Virus record (IMG/VR): IMGVR_UViG_2541047163_000014
Reading direction: 5' to 3' (one strand)
From: a virus
Lineage: Duplodnaviria > Heunggongvirae > Uroviricota > Caudoviricetes
DNA length: 10,732 nucleotides
Of this stretch, positions 1 through 10,732 are shown piece by piece (the stretch's first letter is position 1; each line of letters starts with the position of its first letter). The position numbers were made by a program, and so were the translations under genes. A model generated the notes under the pieces. The model was not told the DNA's origin and did not search any database. It was given only the letters and a program-made list of their open reading frames with translations.

Positions 1-68
1 CGCACTGACGGTTTCATCGTGGGTGTCGGTTATAAGTTCTGATTAGCCAGGTAACACAGTGTTATGAC

Positions 69-96
69 AGCCCGCCGGTTCAGGCGGGCTTTTTTG
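69..96 (+). terminator. Rho-independent terminator (8-bp GC-rich stem AGCCCGCC/GGCGGGCT, 6-nt loop, followed by TTTTTT) ending the upstream off-window gene
   Basis: Perfect inverted repeat agcccgcc-ggttca-ggcgggct followed by a T6 run, read directly from the sequence immediately upstream of the tail fibre start. Confidence 0.75.
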
Positions 97-106
97 TGGG
101 GTGAAT

Positions 107-3022
107 ATGGCAGTAAAGATTTCAGGTGTACTGAAAGACGGCACAGGAAAACCAGTACAGAACTGCACCATTCAACTGAAAGCCAGACGTAACAGCGCCA
201 CGGTGGTGGTGAACACGGTGGCCTCTGAAAATCCGGATGAAGCCGGTCGTTACAGCATGGACGTTGAGTACGGTCAGTACAGCGTTATTCTGTTGGTGGA
301 AGGGTTCCCGCCGTCACATGCCGGGACCATCACCGTGTATGAAGATTCTCAACCCGGTACGCTGAATGATTTTCTTGGTGCCATGACTGAGGATGATGTC
401 CGTCCGGAGGCACTGCGCCGTTTTGAGCTGATGGTGGAAGAGGTGGCGCGTAACGCGTCCGCGGTGGCACAGAACACGGCAGCCGCGAAGAAGTCAGCCA
501 GCGATGCCAGCACATCAGCCCGTGAGGCGGCAACCCATGCGACTGATGCTGCGGACTCAGCACGCGCAGCCAGCACGTCAGCCGGACAGGCCGCGTCGTC
601 GGCTCAGTCAGCGTCTTCCAGCGCAGGAACGGCATCAACAAAGGCTACTGAAGCATCAAAAAGTGCTGCCGCTGCAGAGTCCTCAAAAAGCGCGGCGGCT
701 ACCAGTGCCGGTGCGGCGAAAACGTCAGAAACGAATGCGGCAGTGTCACAACAATCAGCCGCCACTTCTGCATCCACCGCGACCACGAAAGCGTCAGAAG
801 CTGCCTCCTCAGCCAGGGATGCGTCGGCTTCAAAAGAGGCGGCAAAATCATCAGAAACGAGCGCAGCCTCGAGCGCCAGTAGTGCAGCCTCCTCGGCAAC
901 GGCGGCAGGCAATTCCGCGAAGGCGGCCAAAACGTCTGAGACAAACGCTAAGTCCTCTGAAACGGCAGCAGAACAGAGTGCCTCCGCAGCAGCAGGCTCA
1001 AAAACAGCGGCTGCATTATCTGCCAGTGCCGCGTCAACAAGTGCCGGGCAGGCCTCAGCCAGTGCCACCGCCGCCGGAAAATCGGCAGAAAGTGCCGCAT
1101 CGTCTGCTTCAACAGCCACAACGAAGGCTGGCGAAGCCACTGAACAGGCCAGCGCAGCAGCGAGTTCTGCTTCCGCAGCGAAGACATCCGAAACGAACGC
1201 GAAAGCGTCGGAAACCAGCGCAGAATCCTCAAAAACGGCTGCCGCATCGTCAGCCAGTTCGGCGGCGTCATCGGCATCATCTGCGTCTGCTTCAAAAGAT
1301 GAGGCGACCAGACAAGCGTCAGCAGCGAAGAGCAGCGCCACGACGGCATCCACGAAGGCGACAGAGGCAGCTGGTAGTGCGACGGCAGCAGCTCAGAGCA
1401 AAAGTACGGCGGAATCTGCAGCAACGCGCGCTGAGACAGCGGCAAAACGGGCAGAGGATATTGCATCCGCCGTGGCGCTTGAGGATGCGAGCACGACGAA
1501 AAAGGGGATAGTACAGCTCAGCAGTGCGACTAACAGCACTTCCGAGTCACTGGCGGCAACGCCAAAAGCCGTTAAGGCCGCGTATGAGCTGGCTAACGGG
1601 AAATACACCGCACAGGATGCAACGACAGCACAGAAAGGGATAGTTCAGCTTAGCAACGCGACCAACAGCACATCTGAAATGCTGGCGGCAACGCCAAAGT
1701 CGGTAAAGGCAGCCTATGACCTTGCTAACGGGAAATATACTGCTCAGGACGCTACGACAGCACAAAAAGGAATTGTCCAGCTCAGTAGTGCAACCAACAG
1801 CGCATCTGAAACGCTTGCCGCGACACCGAAAGCAGTGAAAGCAGCTAATGATAATGCGAATGGTCGGGTACCTTCTGCCCGTAAGGTGAATGGTAAGGCG
1901 CTTTCATCGGATATAACACTGACGCCGAAAGATATTGGTACGCTTAACTCAACAACAATGTCATTCAGCGGTGGTGCTGGTTGGTTCAAATTAGCAACGG
2001 TAACCATGCCACAGGCGAGTTCTGTTGTTTCAATTACGTTGATTGGTGGCGCGGGATTTAACGTGGGGTCACCTCAACAGGCAGGTATATCTGAACTTGT
2101 TTTGCGTGCAGGTAATGGTAATCCGAAGGGGATTACTGGTGCTTTATGGCAGCGCACATCGACAGGGTTTACAAATTTTGCCTGGGTCAATACATCTGGT
2201 GATACTTACGATATTTACGTTGCAATCGGAAATTATGCGACTGGTGTAAATATTCAATGGGATTATACCAGTAATGCCAGCGTGACGATTCATACGTCAC
2301 CAGCATATTCTGCTAATAAGCCGGAAGGGTTAACGGACGGTACAGTTTATTCACTCTATACGCCATCAGAGCAGTTTTATCCGCCTGGCGCACCAATCCC
2401 GTGGCCATCAGATACCGTTCCGTCTGGCTATGCCCTGATGCAGGGGCAGACTTTTGACAAATCTGCATACCCGAAACTTGCAGCCGCTTATCCGTCAGGC
2501 GTGATCCCTGATATGCGTGGCTGGACGATTAAGGGCAAACCTGCCAGTGGTCGGGCCGTATTGTCTCAGGAACAGGACGGCATTAAATCGCACACCCACA
2601 GCGCCAGCGCATCCAGTACGGATTTGGGGACGAAAACCACATCGTCGTTTGATTACGGCACTAAATCCACGAATAACACCGGGGCGCACACGCACAGTGT
2701 GAGCGGTACAGCCGCAAGTGCCGGAAACCATACTCATAGTGTCACAGGCGCATCAGCAGTCAGCCAGTGGTCACAAAATGGGTCAGTACATAAGGTAGTG
2801 TCTGCGGCCAGTGTGAATACAAGTGCTGCAGGAGCGCACACTCATAGTGTCAGCGGCACAGCTGCATCTGCAGGTGCTCACGCACATACTGTCGGTATTG
2901 GTGCTCATACGCACTCTGTTGCGATTGGCTCACATGGACACACCATCACCGTTAACGCTGCGGGTAACGCGGAAAACACTGTCAAAAACATCGCATTTAA
3001 CTACATTGTGAGGCTTGCATAA
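107..3022 (+). CDS. stf: Side tail fibre protein, lambda Stf / StfR-like (the ORF track starts at GTG 101; ATG 107 giving [12 protein letters not shown] is the more likely start)
   Basis: N-terminus [26 protein letters not shown]...[34 protein letters not shown] matches the lambda Stf N-terminal domain as I remember it. It is followed by a long Ala/Ser/Thr-rich low-complexity shaft, three tandem ~42-aa repeats ([42 protein letters not shown]) and a C-terminal module with His-x-His repeats ([15 protein letters not shown]...) ending [11 protein letters not shown], typical of Stf / P2 gpH / T4 gp37-type fibre tips. GGGG lies upstream of the ATG. Confidence 0.93.
1490..1850 (+). repeat. Three tandem ~126-bp coding repeats (42-aa units) within stf
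   Basis: Protein-level triple repeat [43 protein letters not shown] / [44 protein letters not shown] / [30 protein letters not shown]. The DNA copies differ mostly at synonymous positions. Confidence 0.8.
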
Positions 3023-3600
3023 TGGCATTCAGAATGAGTGAACAACCACGGACCATAAAAATTTATAATCTGCTGACCGGAACTAATGAATTTATTGGTG
3101 AAGGTGACGCATATATTCCGCCTCATACAGGTCTGCCAGCAAACAGTACCTATATTGCACCGCCAGATATTCCGGCTGGCTTCGTGGCTGTTTTCAACAG
3201 TGATGAGGCATCGTGGCATCTCGTTGAAGATCATCGGGGTAAAACGGTTTATGACGTGGCTTCCGGCGACGCGTTATTTATTTCTGAACTCGGTCCGTTA
3301 CCGGAAAATGTTACCTGGTTGTCGCCGGATGGAGAGTGTCAGAAGTGGAACGGCACATCCTGGGCGAAAGATGCAGAAGCAGAAAAACTGTTTCGGGTAC
3401 GGGAGGCAGAAGAAACAAAAAACAGCCTGATGCAGGTAGCCAGTGAGCATATTGCGCCACTTCAGGATGCCGTAGATTTGGATATTGCGACGGAGGAAGA
3501 GGCATCGTTACTGGCTGCATGGAAGACATATCGGGTATTGTTGAATCGTGTTGATACAACAGTAGCAGCGGATGTTGAGTGGCCAGTCGCCCCACAATAA
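3022..3600 (+). CDS. tfa: Tail fibre assembly protein (Tfa family chaperone)
   Basis: 192-aa product directly downstream of stf, with the ATG overlapping the stf TAA stop (TAATG). The sequence ([49 protein letters not shown]...EWPVAPQ) resembles lambda/Rac-type Tfa proteins, and the position is the canonical one for a fibre chaperone. Confidence 0.88.
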
Positions 3601-3606
3601 AAAGAA

Positions 3607-3636
3607 AAAGCCATCGACAGAAATATCGATGGCTTT
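3607..3636. terminator. Bidirectional intrinsic terminator between convergent tfa (+) and the acetyltransferase gene (-)
   Basis: 11-bp perfect stem aaagccatcga / tcgatggcttt with an 8-nt loop. T-rich tracts flank it on both strands (CTTTTTCTTTTTATT on the - strand, TTTATGT on the + strand). Confidence 0.75.
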
Positions 3637-3643
3637 ATGTACT

Positions 3644-4216
3644 CTATTTATACAATACAACACCACTCTTTTTAGTTATATATGTGCAGTTTGATGGTAT
3701 ATCTTTATTTATAAAAGACATTGCACCTATTTTTACATTATCCCCAATTTTACGTGATAATCCAATGATGCAACAATTAGCTCCGATATCAACGTTACTA
3801 CCAATTTTTACTCTTGAACTAGGCATATCACCATCTATCTGTCCAATGGTAGTATTCTGTCGTAATACCAGATTTTCACCCGCATCAACAGCAAAATGAA
3901 CAACAATTCCAGCATGATGGGGAATTGTCAACCCTTTTCCAATATTTGCGCCCAATCCTATTTCACAACCAAACTTGTTAATTATTTTACTGTTTAACTT
4001 TTTGGCTGCTTTCTTATGTAATTTATTACCATTAATATACATTTCGTTAGCCAACCGCCACCAGAAAAGGAAATTCCGGTTACGCTGCTTTTTCTCTCTT
4101 AAAAGCCTCCAGATATCCATACGTTTCCGCCGAATTACTTCATGTTTCCAGAAGTTTTTTAAATTAGTAGAGTTTCCAAATAAAACAAAGTGAATTGCCA
4201 TTAAGTAAGATAGCAC
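3644..4216 (-). CDS. Hexapeptide-repeat (left-handed beta-helix) acetyltransferase, serine-acetyltransferase (CysE/WcaB)-like; AT-rich moron. Start probably GTG 4216 (AAGGAG 6 nt upstream) or ATG 4201; the ORF-track GTG at 4249 is less likely
   Basis: Translation contains the SAT-family core ...FWWRLANEMYINGNKLHKKAAKKLNSKIINKFGCEIGLGANIGKGLTIPHHAGIVVHFAVDAGENLVLRQNTTIGQIDGDMPSSRVKIGSNVDIGANCCIIGLSRKIGDNVKIGAMSFINKDIPSN. That is an amphipathic N-terminal helix segment followed by [LIV]-G-x-x-x-x hexapeptide repeats. G+C is strikingly low (roughly one-third by eye) compared with the flanking phage genes. Stop is TAG at 3644-3646. Confidence 0.8.
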   Translation of the reverse strand: MLSYLMAIHFVLFGNSTNLKNFWKHEVIRRKRMDIWRLLREKKQRNRNFLFWWRLANEMYINGNKLHKKAAKKLNSKIINKFGCEIGLGANIGKGLTIPHHAGIVVHFAVDAGENLVLRQNTTIGQIDGDMPSSRVKIGSNVDIGANCCIIGLSRKIGDNVKIGAMSFINKDIPSNCTYITKKSGVVLYK

Positions 4217-4267
4217 GATAATCTCCTTAATTATTATTTCAGACCACACATGTTATAAGGTTAAGAG

Positions 4268-4296
4268 ATTATAAAATCCTGTTATTTGTTATTCAA
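4268..4296 (-). promoter_or_regulatory. Near-consensus sigma70 promoter for the acetyltransferase gene (-35 TTGAAT, 17-bp spacer, -10 TATAAT on the - strand)
   Basis: Read on the - strand: TTGAAT-AACAAATAACAGGATTT-TATAAT, about 50 nt upstream of the AAGGAG ribosome-binding site and GTG 4216. Confidence 0.6.
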
Positions 4297-4372
4297 AAAC
4301 AATTTTCTGAGAAGGACATACAACAGCAAGTCGCCAGTCACCTTCATCAGGAAATTGGCGACATACGTTAAA

Positions 4373-4867
4373 TCAGAGCAGCCCCTTAACTGAGCTGGCC
4401 GCGCTATTAAGGGATGATGTCACCTTATCTTTGAAGCCGGACAGCATATCGCTGAACGATGAGGATTGCAGGCGCTCCCGCAAATCCTCATCACAGCGTT
4501 CAAGAGTCAGTGAAAATTCTATCTTTTTCGCCTTACCGTAGCGATCAAACTCGGAGCGGGTCGTATTCGTTCCGGTCAGGACATACATGCCGTAAATCTG
4601 CCCGACGCCATCAATCAAAGGCCAAGGACGTCCTGTATATGCCTGCGTGGTCAACAACGACAGCGACACTTCGCCACCAGTAATCTCAGGATAAAGAACA
4701 CCAGAAAGAACGATGCGATCATCACCTGCACCGATATACTGCCAGCTTGCTGAACGGTTAACGCGTTCATTTTTCACATGTCGCCAGCTTTTGTTTTGCT
4801 GTAACTGCTGATGCGGCAACGTGCGCAGCTCAAAAACAAACATGCCGTAGATCATCATCATGGCCAT
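4373..4867 (-). CDS. Phage tail protein, P2 gpU-like (true start may be one of the ATGs at 4861/4858 rather than 4867)
   Basis: Translation MAMMMIYGMFVFELRTLPHQQL...IVLSGVLYPEITGG...IYGMYVLTG...KIEFSLTLERCDE... matches the conserved gpU family pattern. It lies immediately downstream of the tape measure stop, as in the P2 FI-FII-E-T-U-D order. Confidence 0.85.
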   Translation of the reverse strand: MAMMMIYGMFVFELRTLPHQQLQQNKSWRHVKNERVNRSASWQYIGAGDDRIVLSGVLYPEITGGEVSLSLLTTQAYTGRPWPLIDGVGQIYGMYVLTGTNTTRSEFDRYGKAKKIEFSLTLERCDEDLRERLQSSSFSDMLSGFKDKVTSSLNSAASSVKGLL

Positions 4868-4873
4868 GACTCC

Positions 4874-5710
4874 TCAATCTTTATCGTAAAAACTGCCACG
4901 CCTGGCACGGGCGCGCCGTTCCATTTCTGCCCTGACCATTTCGCCGACCAGTTTCGCCAGTTCGCGGGGATTCTGCGTAACAACGTTATGCAGATGAACA
5001 TGAATTTCACCGCCAAATCCGGAGGCAACAGGCTCCCGGTTACGGGAAGTTGCAGGAACTGATGCCACTGGCGATCGTATGGCCTCCACCACCGGGCGGG
5101 AGCTGGCCGCAACAACAGGGACCAGCGCCGGAGGCAGCGGAGCCGGGACCACGGGTGTGATATTAATTGCGGGGGCAGGCTTACTGACCTGCGCAATCTT
5201 CCGCTCCTGCCACTCCCCACGAACAGCAAGTGCGCGGGGCAGGTTCTTAAAGACAATATCGCCGGGGCCAATGCGTTTTTTTGTCTCATCAACCAGCTTA
5301 CCTGTGTTATCAGCAATTTTGCTGAGTCTGCGTAGCGTGCCGGTATTGCTGTCTGTGAGAGGTTTGTTGTCTTTGGGTTTATCATCTCCGGTGCCATTGC
5401 TATTTCCCGCAGACTTCGGCGGATTGATTTTCGCAATGTCTCCCTGAAACAGAGCAACCTTGTCCTGAAGAATGGCCGCACGTTGTGCGTCTTCGATTTT
5501 CTTGCGCGCCCTTTCCGCTTCATCCGGAAGCACACCGAGTTTTTCAAGTATCCACGCCAGCGTATCCAGCAACATTTTTGCAGGCGTCAGAACAAGCTGT
5601 AACGCACCACCAAGAACGTTACCGAATACCTCGCCAGCACTGGTACATTTATCCAGCGTTTCCTTGCTGGACTCCATCGGTGACAGCAGCGATTTAAACC
5701 AGTTAAACAC
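4874..5710 (-). CDS. Tail tape measure protein, C-terminal about 280 codons in a different frame (continuation of the gpT-like gene after the apparent frameshift)
   Basis: This ORF overlaps the 3' end of the 5587..7713 ORF in another frame. Its sequence (FNWFKSLLSPMESSKETLDKCTSAGEVFGNVLGGALQLV...) continues naturally from ...FERFGPVFDVIGSG if one base is restored near 5719-5721. It ends 6 nt before the gpU start. P2-type operons have no separate gene between T and U. Confidence 0.75.
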   Translation of the reverse strand: MFNWFKSLLSPMESSKETLDKCTSAGEVFGNVLGGALQLVLTPAKMLLDTLAWILEKLGVLPDEAERARKKIEDAQRAAILQDKVALFQGDIAKINPPKSAGNSNGTGDDKPKDNKPLTDSNTGTLRRLSKIADNTGKLVDETKKRIGPGDIVFKNLPRALAVRGEWQERKIAQVSKPAPAINITPVVPAPLPPALVPVVAASSRPVVEAIRSPVASVPATSRNREPVASGFGGEIHVHLHNVVTQNPRELAKLVGEMVRAEMERRARARRGSFYDKD

Positions 5711-7713
5711 CTGGCTGAACCGCTTCCGATTACGTCAAAAACAGGGCCAAACCGTTCAAAGGTGTCGCGCAACGGGGTCAGCCTTTCCATAATCCCGCTG
5801 AACACCCCGGCAAAGAAAGCCCTGATAGGATCCCAGTATTTCCAGATAAGAACGGCAGCTCCGGCAAGCGCAGCCACGATAAGACCAACCGGACTGAACA
5901 ACGCCCCGATAACGCCTCCCAGTAAAGAAACGGAACCCGTCACCATTCCCCATAGCGCAGGTAACACCCTGACGACATTCATTGACCGGGTAAGAATGTC
6001 AAAACCAAGACGCAGGGTGGCCAGCTTCCCGTAAAGCACCCCAATAACCAGCGACAACGAGCCAATCGTTGCAGTCATTGCCAGCAACGCACCGCCTGCT
6101 ATCAGTAGCTGGCGCGTCAGTACCGGATGGGCCTGCGCCAGCGAGGTGATTTTTTCAAGCACCCGCGTGAGCCACTGCGTGACAGAACGCAGCGGACCGT
6201 CAACCAGATCACTGATGCGAATACGAAGACCTTCCCATGCGCTGTCGAGATTTTTCAGGTCCCCATCAAGATTATCAGCCATTACTTTTGCGACGCGATC
6301 GGCCTCTCCCCTTGCCCCCTGCAATTCTCTGGTCAGTTTTTGCAGCTCTCCTGAACCAGCCGCCGCAACAAGCGTCTGCAAACCAACGAACGCCTCTTCT
6401 CCGGCGATGTCCTTGAAGAAGGAGACCTGGTCCACCTGTCCGTATTTTTGTGTCGCCTTATAGAGATCAAGCAGCACATCCTCCATCGGGCGCATTTTGC
6501 CTCTGGCGTCAGCAACTGACACCCCCAGCTCTTTCAGTGCATCAGCCGCAGCTTTTGGCGGTGATGCAAGGCGGGACAGACTTGCGCGCATGGCCGTGCC
6601 AGCATCGCTTCCGCGAAGACCATTATTGGCAAGCATCCCGGCCATGGCCGCCGCTTCTTCAAGACTGATACCAAGTTTTGCGGCAACCGGACCGGTATAC
6701 TTCATGGTTTCGCCCAGCGCGCGTAAATCAGTATTGGTCCGGGTAAATGCTGCTGTCAGCGTATCGCCCACCCGGTCCATTTGATCGGCTGTCAGGTTGA
6801 ACTGTGTGAGGATATTGGAGCCTATATCAGCCGTCTCGCCGAGTTCGACGCCACCTGCCAGCGCCATATTAAGAACACCGGGCAATGCGGCCTGAATGGC
6901 CTGCGGAGTAAAACCAGCCATTGCCAGAAAGCTCTGCCCACTGGCGGCATCACTCGCAGTAAACTGTGTTTCAGCAAGTTTTAACGCCTGCTCACGCAGC
7001 GCCTTAAACTGCGGGCTGTTTTTGTCGATTCGCGTCAGTGCCTGAACGCGGGACATCTCTTTGCCGAACCCGATCGCAGGCTGCAAAAAACGCCCGGCAG
7101 CATAGCCGCCCGCCGCTGCCGCACCAATTGCCAGCGCACCACCTGTTTTCAGTTTTCCCGCGGTTTCCTGCGCGTGCGAATACCGCTCACGCGCCTGCGT
7201 TACACGCGCAAGCGCCTGCCGTTCGCGTTCAAGCTGGTTGTTGTATTGTTCGGTGCGTCTGATGGCCTGCTGAATGGTGTTATCGCTGCCTGTCAGGGAA
7301 ATGCCGTGGCGTTTCAGCTCTCCGCCAAGTTCCCTCATTTTCTGAATTTCCCGTGTGCGCGATTCATTCAGGCGTTCAAGCCGGGTGCTTAACTGCTGCA
7401 TCAGCTTTTGTTGTTTTTCGCTGAGCACTGTACCCGTGCGTTGTAACTGATTAAGGGCGTTAAGCTGGCGTCGTGCTTTCACGATGCCAGCATCCGCTTT
7501 ACTGACAGCGTCGCGGGCGCGCTCAAATGATCGCGCCTGACGCTCGAGATTTTTGATCGCCCCCTGCGTTCGCTGGATGGAGTCACCAAACTGCCCCATC
7601 AGGCGGCGTGCGTTTTCGGCAGGTCGGGTCAGCCTGTCAACGGCGCTGAAAGCGACCCGGATATCAAGAGTCTTCATTGTCTGCATTCCCGCTGCGAAGT
7701 GCCGCCCGCTCAC
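5587..7713 (-). CDS. Tail tape measure protein (P2 gpT-like), N-terminal about 660 codons; the reading frame breaks near 5715-5740 (likely start ATG 7677 or 7686 rather than GTG 7713)
   Basis: Long, helical, Ala/Leu/Gln/Arg-rich protein with a hydrophobic Gly-rich segment (LIAGGALLAMTATIGSLSLVIGVLYG...GGVIGALFSPVGLIVAALAGAAVLIW) typical of tape measure proteins, positioned between E' and U. The last ~45 residues of this ORF (SARCLTGLNRCCHRWSPARKRW...) look like out-of-frame translation. Confidence 0.8.
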   Translation of the reverse strand: MSGRHFAAGMQTMKTLDIRVAFSAVDRLTRPAENARRLMGQFGDSIQRTQGAIKNLERQARSFERARDAVSKADAGIVKARRQLNALNQLQRTGTVLSEKQQKLMQQLSTRLERLNESRTREIQKMRELGGELKRHGISLTGSDNTIQQAIRRTEQYNNQLERERQALARVTQARERYSHAQETAGKLKTGGALAIGAAAAGGYAAGRFLQPAIGFGKEMSRVQALTRIDKNSPQFKALREQALKLAETQFTASDAASGQSFLAMAGFTPQAIQAALPGVLNMALAGGVELGETADIGSNILTQFNLTADQMDRVGDTLTAAFTRTNTDLRALGETMKYTGPVAAKLGISLEEAAAMAGMLANNGLRGSDAGTAMRASLSRLASPPKAAADALKELGVSVADARGKMRPMEDVLLDLYKATQKYGQVDQVSFFKDIAGEEAFVGLQTLVAAAGSGELQKLTRELQGARGEADRVAKVMADNLDGDLKNLDSAWEGLRIRISDLVDGPLRSVTQWLTRVLEKITSLAQAHPVLTRQLLIAGGALLAMTATIGSLSLVIGVLYGKLATLRLGFDILTRSMNVVRVLPALWGMVTGSVSLLGGVIGALFSPVGLIVAALAGAAVLIWKYWDPIRAFFAGVFSGIMERLTPLRDTFERFGPVFDVIGSGSARCLTGLNRCCHRWSPARKRWINVPVLARYSVTFLVVRYSLF

Positions 7714-8193
7714 GCCAGCTAACCACTTCGCCGGGCGTCATCATGAAGATTTCGGCGGGCGACCAGTTAAAAATAACGGCAATATCTGCCACAAAGTCTT
7801 CTATGTGCTCAAAGCACACAACCGTGATCAGGCTTCCGTCGCCTGTTCGTTCTTCCCGCCAGAGTCCGCACCGCTCAAAAAATTTACGGCAACCACACAT
7901 AACTGAATAAAGTCACGGGATGCCATTTTTTTGATCGTCACTTCATCCAGTCGCGGTGATGTCACGCGTGACAGCAGCGTAAACATGGATTCCGCTTTCA
8001 GATTCAGCACATCAGACAGCGACAAATCTCGCAGAGATCCAGCCTGCTCAATAGCCCCGGTGATCTCCACATACGTGATTTTTTCGCCGCCTCGCTCAAT
8101 TGGTTGGGTAAGTTTTACACCACGCTCACTGGTTTCTTTCACAGTGTCAGTAACTACCGTGTTTTCGGTATCGATGTTTTTCGTCTCTTTCAT
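7664..8193 (-). CDS. gpE+E'-like fusion product made by programmed -1 translational frameshift (E' extension 7664..7875 in the -1 frame)
   Basis: A -1 frame ORF (7664..7900) overlaps the end of E. On the - strand the sequence AAT TTT TTG contains the slippery heptamer T TTT TTG. The -1 frame continues ...KFFERCGLWREERTGDGSLITVVCFEHIEDFVADIAVIFNWSPAEIFMMTPGEVVSWRERAALRSG, resembling the conserved E' tail. Confidence 0.75.
7828..8193 (-). CDS. Tail assembly chaperone, P2 gpE-like
   Basis: 121-aa ORF between the tube and tape measure genes, with AAGGAG 7 nt upstream of the ATG. The C-terminus ...CVVAVNFLSGADSGGKNEQATEA spans the slippery heptamer. Confidence 0.8.
   Translation of the reverse strand: MKETKNIDTENTVVTDTVKETSERGVKLTQPIERGGEKITYVEITGAIEQAGSLRDLSLSDVLNLKAESMFTLLSRVTSPRLDEVTIKKMASRDFIQLCVVAVNFLSGADSGGKNEQATEA
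7876..7882 (-). other. Slippery heptamer TTTTTTG (- strand) for the E/E' -1 programmed ribosomal frameshift
   Basis: + strand caaaaaa at 7876-7882 is TTTTTTG on the - strand, in X XXY YYZ register with the E frame (AAT TTT TTG). Confidence 0.75.
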
Positions 8194-8247
8194 CAGGAAA
8201 CTCCTTTCAGTCAGAGGCGACGCACTGCGCCGCCTGCATATTACTTA

Positions 8248-8760
8248 TCAGCCAAGCCCAAGCGCGGAACGGATGCGATCGGGCACAATGTCCTTGCCGT
8301 CCTTCCGGTAAATGAAGTTCAGCAGGTCAATCTCCCACAACGGGCGATCGTTAACACTCAGCTTGTAGTAGGTGTTTTTAATGGCGTAAGTGTGTGATGT
8401 GGCTTCGCCCTGTTTGGCTTCCCCCATATCAATTTCCGTCACACGTCCGCGCATTTCGACTTCATACAGGTCGCTTTCATCATCGGTGTAGTATTCCCCC
8501 GCAAAACGCAGTAGCGTGCCGTCAATCGTGCCGCCATACTTCAGGAACAGCTCACGAACTGCGCCCCCCATGACAAAGCTCGCATCAAGCGCGGAGTCGT
8601 CCAGGCCGAGGTCAATACTTACCGCACCCATCATGCCACCACCCCGGTAGCTGTCGGTTTTGCGCGTCAGTTTAGGCAGGGTGACGGACGTCACCTTACC
8701 CACTTCGTTTTCACCATCCACAAACAGCGTAAAAAAGCGAAGATGTTTTGGTACAGCCAT
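8248..8760 (-). CDS. Tail tube protein, P2 gpFII-like
   Basis: Translation MAVPKHLRFFTLFVDGENEVGKVTSVTLPKLTRKTDSYRGGGMMGAVSIDLGLDD...YYKLSVNDRPLWEIDLLNFIYRKDG matches the FII tube family pattern (RFFTL.VDG...YRGGGM...YYKLS...EID). The start overlaps the sheath stop (ATGA-type coupling). Confidence 0.9.
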   Translation of the reverse strand: MAVPKHLRFFTLFVDGENEVGKVTSVTLPKLTRKTDSYRGGGMMGAVSIDLGLDDSALDASFVMGGAVRELFLKYGGTIDGTLLRFAGEYYTDDESDLYEVEMRGRVTEIDMGEAKQGEATSHTYAIKNTYYKLSVNDRPLWEIDLLNFIYRKDGKDIVPDRIRSALGLG

Positions 8761-9944
8761 CAGGCACCTCCCAGCACCGCAAATGCGGGACCAAAGAATT
8801 CATCAGTAAACGACTGGTAAAGCTCCATGTCTTCCAGCGGAGGAACGGGCGTATATTTGTAGCGAATACGCACACGCCCCTGACGTAAATTCGTGGTGCT
8901 GTTATCCTCGATGTCATACCAGCACTCCGCGCCAATCAGTTTCCCGGCAGTAACCAGTGAATCCAGTTTTGCCCTGATGGCACTGATAACATCCTTCACG
9001 TTCGCAGGTGTCAGTGGACTGTCGATGGTTTCAAACTGCGCTTCCGCAATTGAATCAGCCAGCACCTGTGCGGTTCGGGTATACACCTCAAAGATGTAGG
9101 CGTTCGTTTCCGGTGTGCGGTTGCCCCAGAAGCGGAACCCGTTGCGACGAATAATGGTCGTGATTTCTTTGTTGTTGAGGCTGTTGGCATCACTGTCTTC
9201 GGCCTGCAACGACCAGAACACATGCCTCGACATCCCAAGCACATTTTTAACCGGAACGTTGGACAGCGATTTGTGCCAGCCCTGCTCATGGTCAATGTAC
9301 GCACGAAGGCCGCACGCATAAGCAGGCGCGGGGAACGTTTCGTTTTTGCCACTTTTCAGGTTGTAGGCGATGAAGTCAGGCCATAAGAGCATCACCTCAC
9401 GTTCGTTGAATTTCTGGCGGTAGGTAATCGCCTCAGCCATCGTGTTACAACCATGACATGTGGCATACACAAACGCGCGCAGTTTACCCGCAATCACGCA
9501 CAGGGATTTTGTTACCGCCTCCGTGTCCAGCTCCGGCGCGGCCAGAATACGCGGACGGTATCCGATGCTTTCATCCTGCTCTGCAACAAGCAGCGCATAC
9601 ATCCCCGTATAGCTGCCGTCAGATTCAGAACCACCGATAACCAGTTGATCCTGCGTCTTACCGCCTTCTTCTTTGTGTTCAGCCACGCGAACGACGATCA
9701 CTTTTGTGCTCACCTGGTCTGCGATAGCCTTAAGCGCACGATAAAGCGTCCCCGTAGTCCCGCATTTTCCCAGCACGTCATTGACGCGGGTCAGCAGTGT
9801 GGGCTTGTTCAGCGGGAACAGCTCCGCGTCCGCATCATCTGCCGTTGCCACGATACCGATAACACTGGAATCAACATCATTAATCGCTGTTACCAGGTCG
9901 GTACTTTCCGTAACACGGGCACCATGAAAACGAGTTTCACTCAT
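8760..9944 (-). CDS. Contractile tail sheath protein, P2 gpFI-like
   Basis: 394-aa product (MSETRFHGARVTESTDLVTAINDVDSSVIGIVATADDADAELFPLNKPTLLTRVNDVLGKCGTTGTLYRALKAIADQ...) resembling P2 FI-family sheath proteins. AAGGGG ribosome-binding site 8 nt upstream of the ATG. It lies immediately upstream of the tube gene. Confidence 0.9.
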   Translation of the reverse strand: MSETRFHGARVTESTDLVTAINDVDSSVIGIVATADDADAELFPLNKPTLLTRVNDVLGKCGTTGTLYRALKAIADQVSTKVIVVRVAEHKEEGGKTQDQLVIGGSESDGSYTGMYALLVAEQDESIGYRPRILAAPELDTEAVTKSLCVIAGKLRAFVYATCHGCNTMAEAITYRQKFNEREVMLLWPDFIAYNLKSGKNETFPAPAYACGLRAYIDHEQGWHKSLSNVPVKNVLGMSRHVFWSLQAEDSDANSLNNKEITTIIRRNGFRFWGNRTPETNAYIFEVYTRTAQVLADSIAEAQFETIDSPLTPANVKDVISAIRAKLDSLVTAGKLIGAECWYDIEDNSTTNLRQGRVRIRYKYTPVPPLEDMELYQSFTDEFFGPAFAVLGGA

Positions 9945-10101
9945 AGCTTCAGCCCCTTGTATCCGTTAAATGATTCGGCAACAATCATCACCCACCACGC
10001 GCGTAATCTCACCCCTGCGCCGTTCTCCCGCCACGGCGACAACAAAAAGCAGTAACCCCCTCCGCACGCACATGCGACCATGCCGCACAGGGAGGGAACA
10101 G

Positions 10102-10368
10102 ATGACCGACACCACCATGCAATTGCTCAGTCAGGGCACAGACCACGTGAAAGTGCCGGATTTTGATATTCTCGCGGAGGGTAAAACGCTGTCAGGCGTG
10201 GCAGAGCGCCTGATGAGCCTGTCACTGACCGACAACCGGGGATTTGAGGCGGACCAGCTCACCATCACGCTGGATGATGCAGATGGTCAGTTGCAGCTAC
10301 CGCCACGGGGCGCGCGCCTGACGGTTCTCATTGGCTGGAAAGGAGAACCGCTGACAGAAAAAGGCACT
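10102..10368 (+). pseudogene. P2 gpD-like tail protein (late control gene D family), N-terminal ~90 codons only; truncated by IS insertion
   Basis: From ATG 10102 (GGGAGGGA upstream): MTDTTMQLLSQGTDHVKVPDFDILAEGKTLSGVAERLMSLSLTDNRGFEADQLTITLDDADGQLQLPPRGARLTVLIGWKGEPLTEKG, which contains the gpD-family N-terminal signature (LSLT.TDNRGFEADQL.I.LDD.DG...PRRGA.L...GW.G). The frame then runs into IS terminal inverted-repeat sequence at about 10369 and stops. Full-length gpD is about 390 aa. Confidence 0.75.
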
Positions 10369-10519
10369 TGTAGATTCAATCTGTCAATGCAACACCCCTT
10401 TCAATTATCTCTTTCGGTGTTTTGAACTTCAGTGTCTTTCTCGGTCTGTTGTTTAGCTGAGCAGCAACCAGATCTTCATGTTGAGTATATTGGGCAAGAC
10501 ATGTCTTTTTAGGAAAGTA
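10369..10519 (-). mobile_element. IS30-family insertion sequence, terminal fragment (inverted repeat plus the last ~47 codons of the transposase gene)
   Basis: TGTAGATTCAATCTGTCAATGCAACACC at 10369 closely resembles the IS30 terminal inverted repeat (TGTAGATTCAAT.GGTCAA.GCAAC) as I remember it. The - strand encodes ...YFPKKTCLAQYTQHEDLVAAQLNNRPRKTLKFKTPKEIIERGVALTD-stop, with the stop inside the inverted repeat, as in IS30-family transposases. The fragment ends abruptly at the IS3-family end. Confidence 0.7.
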
Positions 10520-10732
10520 TGAACCGCCCCGGTTTTCCTGGAGAGTGTTTTATCTGTGAACTCAGGCTGCCAGATCATCGTTTCCGATGGAAGCATAATA
10601 AGCTTTTTCTGCTTCTGCCGGAGGAGTATGGCCCAGCCTTCCCAGCAATCGTCGATTGTTATACCAGTCCACCCACGTTAGTGTGGCCAGTTCCACTTCT
10701 GCACGGTTTTTCCAGCTCTTACGGTGTATTAC
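10520..10732 (-). mobile_element. IS3-family element (IS629/IS1203-like), terminal inverted repeat plus 3' end of transposase orfB; continues beyond the window
   Basis: The end sequence TGAACCGCCCCGG... is a typical IS3-family terminal inverted repeat (TG...). The - strand encodes ...VIHRKSWKNRAEVELATLTWVDWYNNRRLLGRLGHTPPAEAEKAYYASIGNDDLAA-stop (stop at 10562-10564), a typical IS3-family orfB C-terminus. Confidence 0.75.

Follow-up and report, generated by a model that had tools for sequence, protein, structure and literature searches.

Gene content of the window

We analyzed the virus record IMGVR_UViG_2541047163_000014, a stretch of 10,732 base pairs (bp) that is the entire draft contig AVQS01000076.1 (assembly GCA_000461955.2) and is referred to here as the window. 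The contig has lom at one end and an insertion sequence (IS) element at the other, and between them lie the lambdoid tail fiber genes stf and tfa, an acetyltransferase gene and a contractile tail set of the P2 family (Table 1). The homologues of FI, FII, E/E′, T, U and gpD are all present, however, the set is not intact, since T is frameshifted and D is truncated. We consider the window to be best explained, with a probability of roughly 0.75, as a decayed remnant of a P88-like prophage (about 3203-10368) that is joined within tfa to the lom-stf-tfa region of a lambdoid prophage (1-3207).

A preliminary description of the window, made from its letters alone, had placed FI-FII-E-E′-T-U on the minus strand and a gpD-like gene on the plus strand, divergent from FI. 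The open reading frames (ORFs) and their Pfam and PHROG matches bear this out. The plus-strand ORF at 10102 is indeed gpD-like, being 98% identical to gp51 of phage P88, which in turn matches PF05954 (Phage_GPD) and is 49% identical to P2 gpD (E=2e-121). The RefSeq label for an identical gpD fragment is "phage late control D family protein, incomplete". The same description assigned the fiber genes to the lambda Stf/Tfa type instead of the P2 gpH type, in agreement with the matches to PF08400 (E=9e-73) and PF02413, and it expected a lambdoid lom to the left. The 3′ end of lom is found there, and a sister contig (L008) that reaches 68 nucleotides (nt) beyond the start of the window has at this place an ORF matching PF06316 (Ail_Lom), with J lying outside the contig. 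One assignment did not hold, as 3644-4249 had been counted as part of the tail module but encodes a hexapeptide acetyltransferase, which is not a tail gene.

Table 1. Features of the window, with coordinates, strand and the evidence for each assignment.
Feature	Coordinates	Strand	Evidence
lom (Ail/Lom), 3′ end only, lambdoid	1..42	+	gapless alignment of 1-3587 with the O157:H7 ATCC 35150 lambdoid prophage, lom ending 42 nt in
stf, side tail fiber, 971 amino acids (aa)	107..3022	+	PF08400 (E=9e-73), PF03406 repeats, Collar domain
tfa, tail fiber assembly, 192 aa, hybrid, in frame	3022..3600	+	PF02413; mismatch maps against both parents
Crossover interval, lambdoid (left) / P88-like (right)	3203..3207	.	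base-by-base comparison
Hairpin, 13-bp stem, terminator-like (putative), between convergent tfa and acetyltransferase	3607..3636	.	consensus scan; function inferred
Hexapeptide-repeat acetyltransferase, low GC, moron in the tfa-gpU slot	3644..4216	-	phrog_2154 (E=3e-87)
gpU-type tail protein	4373..4861	-	PF06995 (E=1.5e-38), phrog_76
gpT tape measure, pseudogene, two ORFs (696 aa, 233 aa)	4874..7677	-	PF10145 (E=7.9e-55), phrog_28
E′, tail assembly chaperone, -1 frame	7664..7819	-	PF06528
E, tail assembly chaperone	7828..8193	-	phrog_103 (E=2e-35)
Slippery heptamer T TTT TTG in the E/E′ overlap	7882-7876	-	read directly in the sequence
FII, tail tube	8248..8760	-	PF04985 (E=1.3e-47)
FI, tail sheath	8760..9944	-	PF04984, PF22671, PF17482
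FI/gpD divergent spacer, 157 bp	9945..10101	.	100% identical to P88 over the aligned stretch
gpD (baseplate hub / late control D), first 89 codons, cut by IS	10102..10368	+	98% identical to the N-terminus of P88 gp51
IS30 end, terminal 150 nt, inserted in gpD	10369..10519	-	colinear with 493/89, IS30 transposase gene after its gpD fragment
IS629/IS1203-type (IS3 family) end, nested in IS30; the window ends here	10520..10732	-	nucleotide match to annotated IS ends

The hybrid tfa gene and its origin

Both parents of the window can be followed base by base through tfa. Positions 1-3207 differ from the lambdoid lom-stf-tfa region of O157:H7 strain ATCC 35150 at only two sites (154 and 158; 99.9% identity). 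From 3208 to 3587 there are 40 mismatches to the same prophage, and homology stops at 3587. When compared with the P88-like prophage of O157:H- strain 493/89, positions 3022-3202 carry six mismatches (3026, 3027, 3076, 3114, 3151 and 3202) and positions 3203-5718 carry none. Because the lambdoid match extends to 3207 and the P88-like match begins at 3203, the mismatch maps show that the contig, as assembled, crosses from one parent to the other at 3203-3207, within tfa. The predicted hybrid tfa is in frame, with a 5′ portion from the lambdoid allele and a 3′ portion from the P88-like allele, which is also that of the Sp13-type remnant described below. Farther to the right, 3203-10519 matches the P88-like prophage found at leuZ in the O157 lineage, and 3268-10474 is without a single difference from O157:H7 strain TR01. 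The lambdoid counterpart in O157:H7 is the prophage by the ompT/minE region, which shares with the window the upstream lom, the PF08400 fiber and the PF02413 Tfa. The window departs from it in the 3′ two-thirds of tfa and in all sequence beyond, which are of P88-like origin. A junction of two different prophage remnants was one of the explanations offered in the preliminary description. The join of lambdoid and P88-like DNA is present, but it lies within tfa instead of at either of the borders proposed there (4250-4372 and 9945-10101).

The fiber gene to the left of the crossover comes from the lambdoid parent. The native fiber of the 493/89 P88-like prophage has a P2 gpH-type N-terminus (PF12571), whereas the fiber of the window carries PF08400 and has lom before it. 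A lambda-type stf thus stands where P88 has I and H, and the window has no PF12571 fiber following J-I. Lambdoid and P88-like phages have the C-terminus of stf, tfa and the acetyltransferase in common, and in the lambdoid prophage of BEC1-S17 the order J-lom-stf-macro-tfa is followed by an acetyltransferase as in the window. This shared cassette provides homology for exchanges of this kind.

The gene content between fiber and assembly genes varies among these prophages. A macro-domain gene lies between the fiber gene and tfa in 493/89 (L006 16620-17522), in O157:H7 LSU61 (L007 16485-17387) and in lambdoid BEC1-S17 (L005 14763-15653), whereas neither the window nor 55989 has it. In addition, the tfa of TR01 has its own patch of 10 differences from other O157:H7 strains, in the segment equivalent to 3133-3267 of the window. 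This patch points to gene conversion between tfa copies, of which the genome has many.

The P88-like half of the window is a decayed element that is already known from O157:H7. In 493/89 and LSU61 the tape measure gene is intact (2808 bp), whereas in the window it has a 1-bp deletion near 5722 (difference at 5719/5722). The same deletion occurs in TR01, whose copy bears the annotation "frameshifted". On the other side of the tail block, an IS30 interrupts gpD after codon 89, at a site common to 493/89, TR01 and the two sister contigs (L008 and L009). From the T frameshift and the IS30 insertion in gpD we conclude that the element is defective at the level of its genes. The preliminary description had called the element probably defective, which stands, although the reasons are different from the rearrangement it invoked: they are the T frameshift, the IS in gpD and, in related complete O157:H7 genomes, the loss of head and baseplate genes. 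In typical O157:H7 (TR01, EDL933, TW14359, EC4115, 86-24 and others) IS629 adjoins tfa at the equivalent of window 3066/3067. The head, lysis, baseplate and fiber genes are gone from this remnant, and replication and partition genes lie beyond the IS629. The window shares the T frameshift and the IS30 at gpD codon 89 with these genomes. It differs from them in having, at the place where they have IS629, the lambdoid 5′ end of tfa, stf and lom. The P88-like half is thus the decayed leuZ-linked P2-like prophage of O157:H7. Based on position and content in related genomes, we infer that this prophage is equivalent to Sp13 of Sakai. Sp13, the single P2-like prophage of O157 Sakai, is likewise without most morphogenetic genes (PMC2669165).

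We think it probable that the hybrid junction exists in the cell and not only in the assembly, an assessment drawn from the contigs and the parental alleles. The exact hybrid Tfa protein occurs in only three contigs of a very large collection, from the strains of assemblies GCA_000461955, GCA_000462565 and GCA_000462605. These three sister contigs were assembled separately and end at different places, yet the crossover and the downstream sequence are the same in each. The switch is bracketed by two diagnostic sites, 3202 with the lambdoid allele and 3208 with the P88-like allele, that are just 6 nt apart. A join by exact k-mers or exact overlaps could not give such a junction, since the switch would then fall within the 85 identical nt of 3209-3293, leaving the lambdoid base in place at 3208. 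The parental tfa alleles appear to be conserved across about 270 O157-lineage genomes, as judged from uniform identity values rather than site by site. Bubble-popping in a De Bruijn graph was also considered as the source of the junction and judged unlikely, as 3202 and 3208 would share one bubble.

Several observations weigh against a real junction and speak for its main rival, an assembly chimera. Under this explanation the strain would have the usual O157:H7 arrangement, namely a lambdoid stf-tfa with its own downstream genes, starting with manganese catalase, and, separately, the Sp13-type remnant beginning at IS629 and tfa codon 16, and the two would have been joined through the near-identical 5′ half of tfa by a consensus step that tolerates mismatches. 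No complete E. coli genome spans the junction (0 of 5426, including about 270 of the O157 lineage, searched with queries 1-10732, 1-4400, 2950-3700 and 3066-3700), and over the full length of 2950-3700 no match exceeds 96.7% identity. The three contigs with the hybrid Tfa are short, draft and of neighboring accessions, and presumably come from one project and one pipeline. The window itself is a whole 10.7-kb contig with repeats at both ends. The two tfa copies are most alike just where the crossover lies, the parents differing at only five sites in 3067-3293, and an overlap-consensus assembler tolerating about 2% mismatch could make a chimera here. The three sister contigs (window, L008 and L009) also disagree at 2-12 sites in stf 36-247. 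This disagreement is probably consensus noise across the multi-copy 5′ ends of lambdoid stf genes, and calls for caution about how repeats were handled. Finally, as described below, the simplest chromosomal crossover that would make the junction would be lethal. We nonetheless regard a chimera as unlikely, given the identical crossover in contigs with different ends and a switch between 3202 and 3208 that could not come about by exact joining of the parental alleles as known. The restriction to three contigs in a very large collection also means that the junction is no general artifact of O157:H7 drafts.

If the junction is real, homologous recombination inside tfa, within the shared cassette of stf C-terminus, tfa and acetyltransferase, would have joined both prophages. 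A simple crossover between two chromosomal tfa copies was rejected as the route. The lambdoid stf-tfa that matches the window and the Sp13-type tfa form direct repeats in WS4202, with about 0.9 Mb between them, and a crossover would delete this 0.9 Mb across the terminus region. Sp13 of O157 Sakai excises, circularizes and replicates after mitomycin C, and gets packaged (PMC2669165). We therefore favor a route in which a single homologous crossover would bring an excised Sp13-type circle into the lambdoid tfa, because this would give the observed junction without the loss that a direct-repeat crossover entails. The outcome would be a composite prophage: the replicating Sp13-type circle, which is a defective replicon of the P2 family, would have returned to the chromosome within the lambdoid tfa and would be carried inside the lambdoid genome. 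We put this forward tentatively, as a possibility with the odds against it. Were it true, the P2-family remnant could be mobilized along with the lambdoid genome.

A real junction could also have arisen by a large chromosomal inversion between inversely oriented tfa copies, if the lambdoid prophage involved sits on the opposite replichore or had been turned by a previous inversion. It is well known that prophages mediate inversions around the terminus of O157:H7 chromosomes, and each O157:H7 genome offers at least three tfa-like and about ten stf-like places. However, in WS4202, the one genome checked for both, the Sp13-type tfa has the same orientation as the lambdoid stf copy that matches best, and the two are not inverted. 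In ATCC 35150 the lambdoid copy was located, and its orientation relative to leuZ was deduced from flanking genes, with LSU61 standing in for the leuZ prophage. Neither product junction occurs in any complete genome. We consider an inversion of this kind doubtful.

Apart from this junction, nothing in the window is new: the tail layout is that of P88-like phages, the remnant is a known O157:H7 element, and a strain-specific recombinant between a lambdoid and a P2-family prophage at tfa is an ordinary kind of event. The biological weight of these findings is small, although they are useful as a correction of the expected gene order, and the recombinant adds a further example of tail fiber cassettes serving as recombination bridges between unrelated O157:H7 prophages. 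If the junction is true, it would point to a mobile but defective Sp13-type element that is able to relocate by homologous recombination.

The tail block order is native to P88-like phages

In P2 the order H-G-fun(Z)-FI-FII-E-E′-T-U-D-ogr is annotated on a single strand, and the preliminary description was correct that the layout of the window differs from it. Gene families FI, FII, E/E′, T, U and D are common to both. The window sheath is 45-47% identical to P2-group sheaths, and full-length P88 gpD is 49% identical to its P2 counterpart. In the P2 (Peduovirus) FETUD operon seven genes and ogr lie on one strand behind promoter PF, whereas in the window FI..U are on the minus strand and D, on the plus strand, is split off and divergent. 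The order of P2 sensu stricto is therefore not that of the window.

The order found in the window is, instead, that of intact phages. Window 4367-10369, which spans both borders of the inversion proposed in the preliminary description, is colinear with 13 phage records representing eight distinct phages (P88, 500465-2, PhiR44_2, 520873, 503458, P884B11, Citrobacter phiSM and Chuche) at 91-97% nucleotide identity. The alignment is one piece in most records and two pieces in two phages that carry IS100. As single alignments, the identity is 94.2% to P88 and 96.8% to 500465-2, and the sheath FI is 98% identical to that of PhiR44_2. The P88 annotation runs V-W-J-I-H-G, then an invertase and alternative fiber cassette, then U, T, E′, E, FII and FI on the opposite strand, and then D. 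The relative orientation of this block and D is thus the same in P88 and its relatives (Xuanwuvirus) as in the window, down to an identical FI/D spacer. P88 is complete and inducible, unlike the window with its frameshifted T and IS-cut D: mitomycin C induces it, it gives plaques, and its burst size is about 65 (PMC5285337). Phage phiSM is an active temperate phage that is released spontaneously and lysogenizes its host (PMC6456863).

The same arrangement is common in bacterial chromosomes and extends beyond the genus. The prophages at tRNA-Leu (leuZ) of 55989, O157:H- 493/89 and O157:H7 LSU61 have the order seen in the window, including the acetyltransferase between tfa and gpU, and have D-ogr-hok at the right end. 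The junction of sheath and gpD (9500-10368) is colinear in 1357 of the 5426 complete E. coli genomes. This layout is also found in a Klebsiella phage of the genus Reipivirus whose sheath is 70% identical, and the FI/D spacer is partly conserved there. Together these comparisons show that in P88-like phages (Xuanwuvirus, Peduoviridae) the FI-FII-E/E′-T-U operon natively reads toward the fiber genes, with D and ogr in a divergent unit of their own. Compared with P2, the arrangement is an old inversion that became fixed in the P88-like lineage and split the F operon into FI..U and D-ogr units, and not a recent rearrangement.

The preliminary description had instead taken the opposite orientations of the P2 block and D as the sign of an inversion of the roughly 5.6-kb FI..U segment between 4250-4372 and 9945-10101, and had named a family of intact, inducible phages with exactly this order as the observation that would contradict it. 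P88 and phiSM are such phages, and the inversion model is refuted, since intact, inducible and plaque-forming phages share the exact order and orientation. A recent inversion within a P2-type prophage is also at odds with borders that are both colinear at the nucleotide level in functional phages and conserved in a second genus. No inverted repeats were found at 4250-4372 and 9945-10101, as a search of 3500-10732 gave only five weak pairs (15-25 nt, 76-93% complementary), none of them at the borders. Likewise, there is no invertase gene among the ORFs of the window, and the invertase of P88 flanks the fiber cassette and not the tail block. We regard this explanation as having almost no chance of being correct.

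The gene order of P2 is therefore not universal in the P2 family. A split, divergent arrangement of FI..U and D-ogr is the norm in P88-like and Reipivirus phages, and as such should not be taken as a sign of rearrangement or decay.

With the two units diverging, the 157-bp FI/D spacer presumably holds two putative late promoters that face away from each other. Two scans count against this view. The P2-type late-promoter dyad TGT-N12-ACA is absent from the spacer, with a single hit in the scan, at 2917 inside stf, which is below chance expectation. A sigma-70 scan of the spacer gave nothing usable.

Insertion sequences, moron slots and minor features

The right end of the window consists of nested IS ends. 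The IS629-type end at 10520-10732 is 99.5% identical to the end of an IS1203-type element of the IS3 family, of the kind annotated in ATCC 35150, and 97.7% identical to the IS3-family element of TR01. The place of the nested element in IS30 was compared over window 10369-10732, L008 10437-11294, L009 10372-11128 and TR01 (L010) 16870-19160. The nested IS629-type element enters about 150 nt into IS30 in the window only, whereas in TR01 it lies about 1 kb into IS30 and in the two sister contigs it is absent from this place. The difference reflects either a strain-specific hop of IS629 or an assembler that passed into another copy of IS30.

Between tfa and gpU the window carries the acetyltransferase, which has a GC content of 35-37%. 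The protein scores below every NCBIfam cut-off, and the nearest models are of the EpsC/WcaB/CysE type. A promoter-like site is found near the gene at 4296-4268. The gene occupies the identical slot in the prophages of 55989, 493/89 and TR01, and it also follows tfa in the lambdoid prophage of BEC1-S17. The position between tfa/G and gpU is a hotspot for morons. P88 has an invertase and alternative fiber cassette there, together with a gpH-type fiber, and differs in this from the window with its acetyltransferase. Reipivirus has DUF262 genes in this slot and P2 has fun(Z). This distribution suggests that the acetyltransferase may be a conversion gene that modifies surface polysaccharide and travels with the fiber cassette.

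A second moron slot may exist in the gap between D and ogr. A YecA-family gene lies there in 493/89 (L006 27347-28486) and in LSU61 (L007 25988-27127), and it is not present in 55989 or P88.

The slippery heptamer in the E/E′ overlap is in the X XXY YYZ register. In position it corresponds to the annotated -1 site of P2 E/E+E′. Judged from the motif and its place, a programmed -1 frameshift of E/E′ appears to be conserved in the diverged P88-like lineage.

Two further observations concern stf. The Ala/Ser-rich center of the gene (504-1511) has a GC content of about 60% and a strong AT skew, and contains long spurious ORFs in other frames. Next to it, 1502-1851 consists of diverged direct repeats of about 130 nt with 78% identity, which correspond to the PF03406 fiber repeats.

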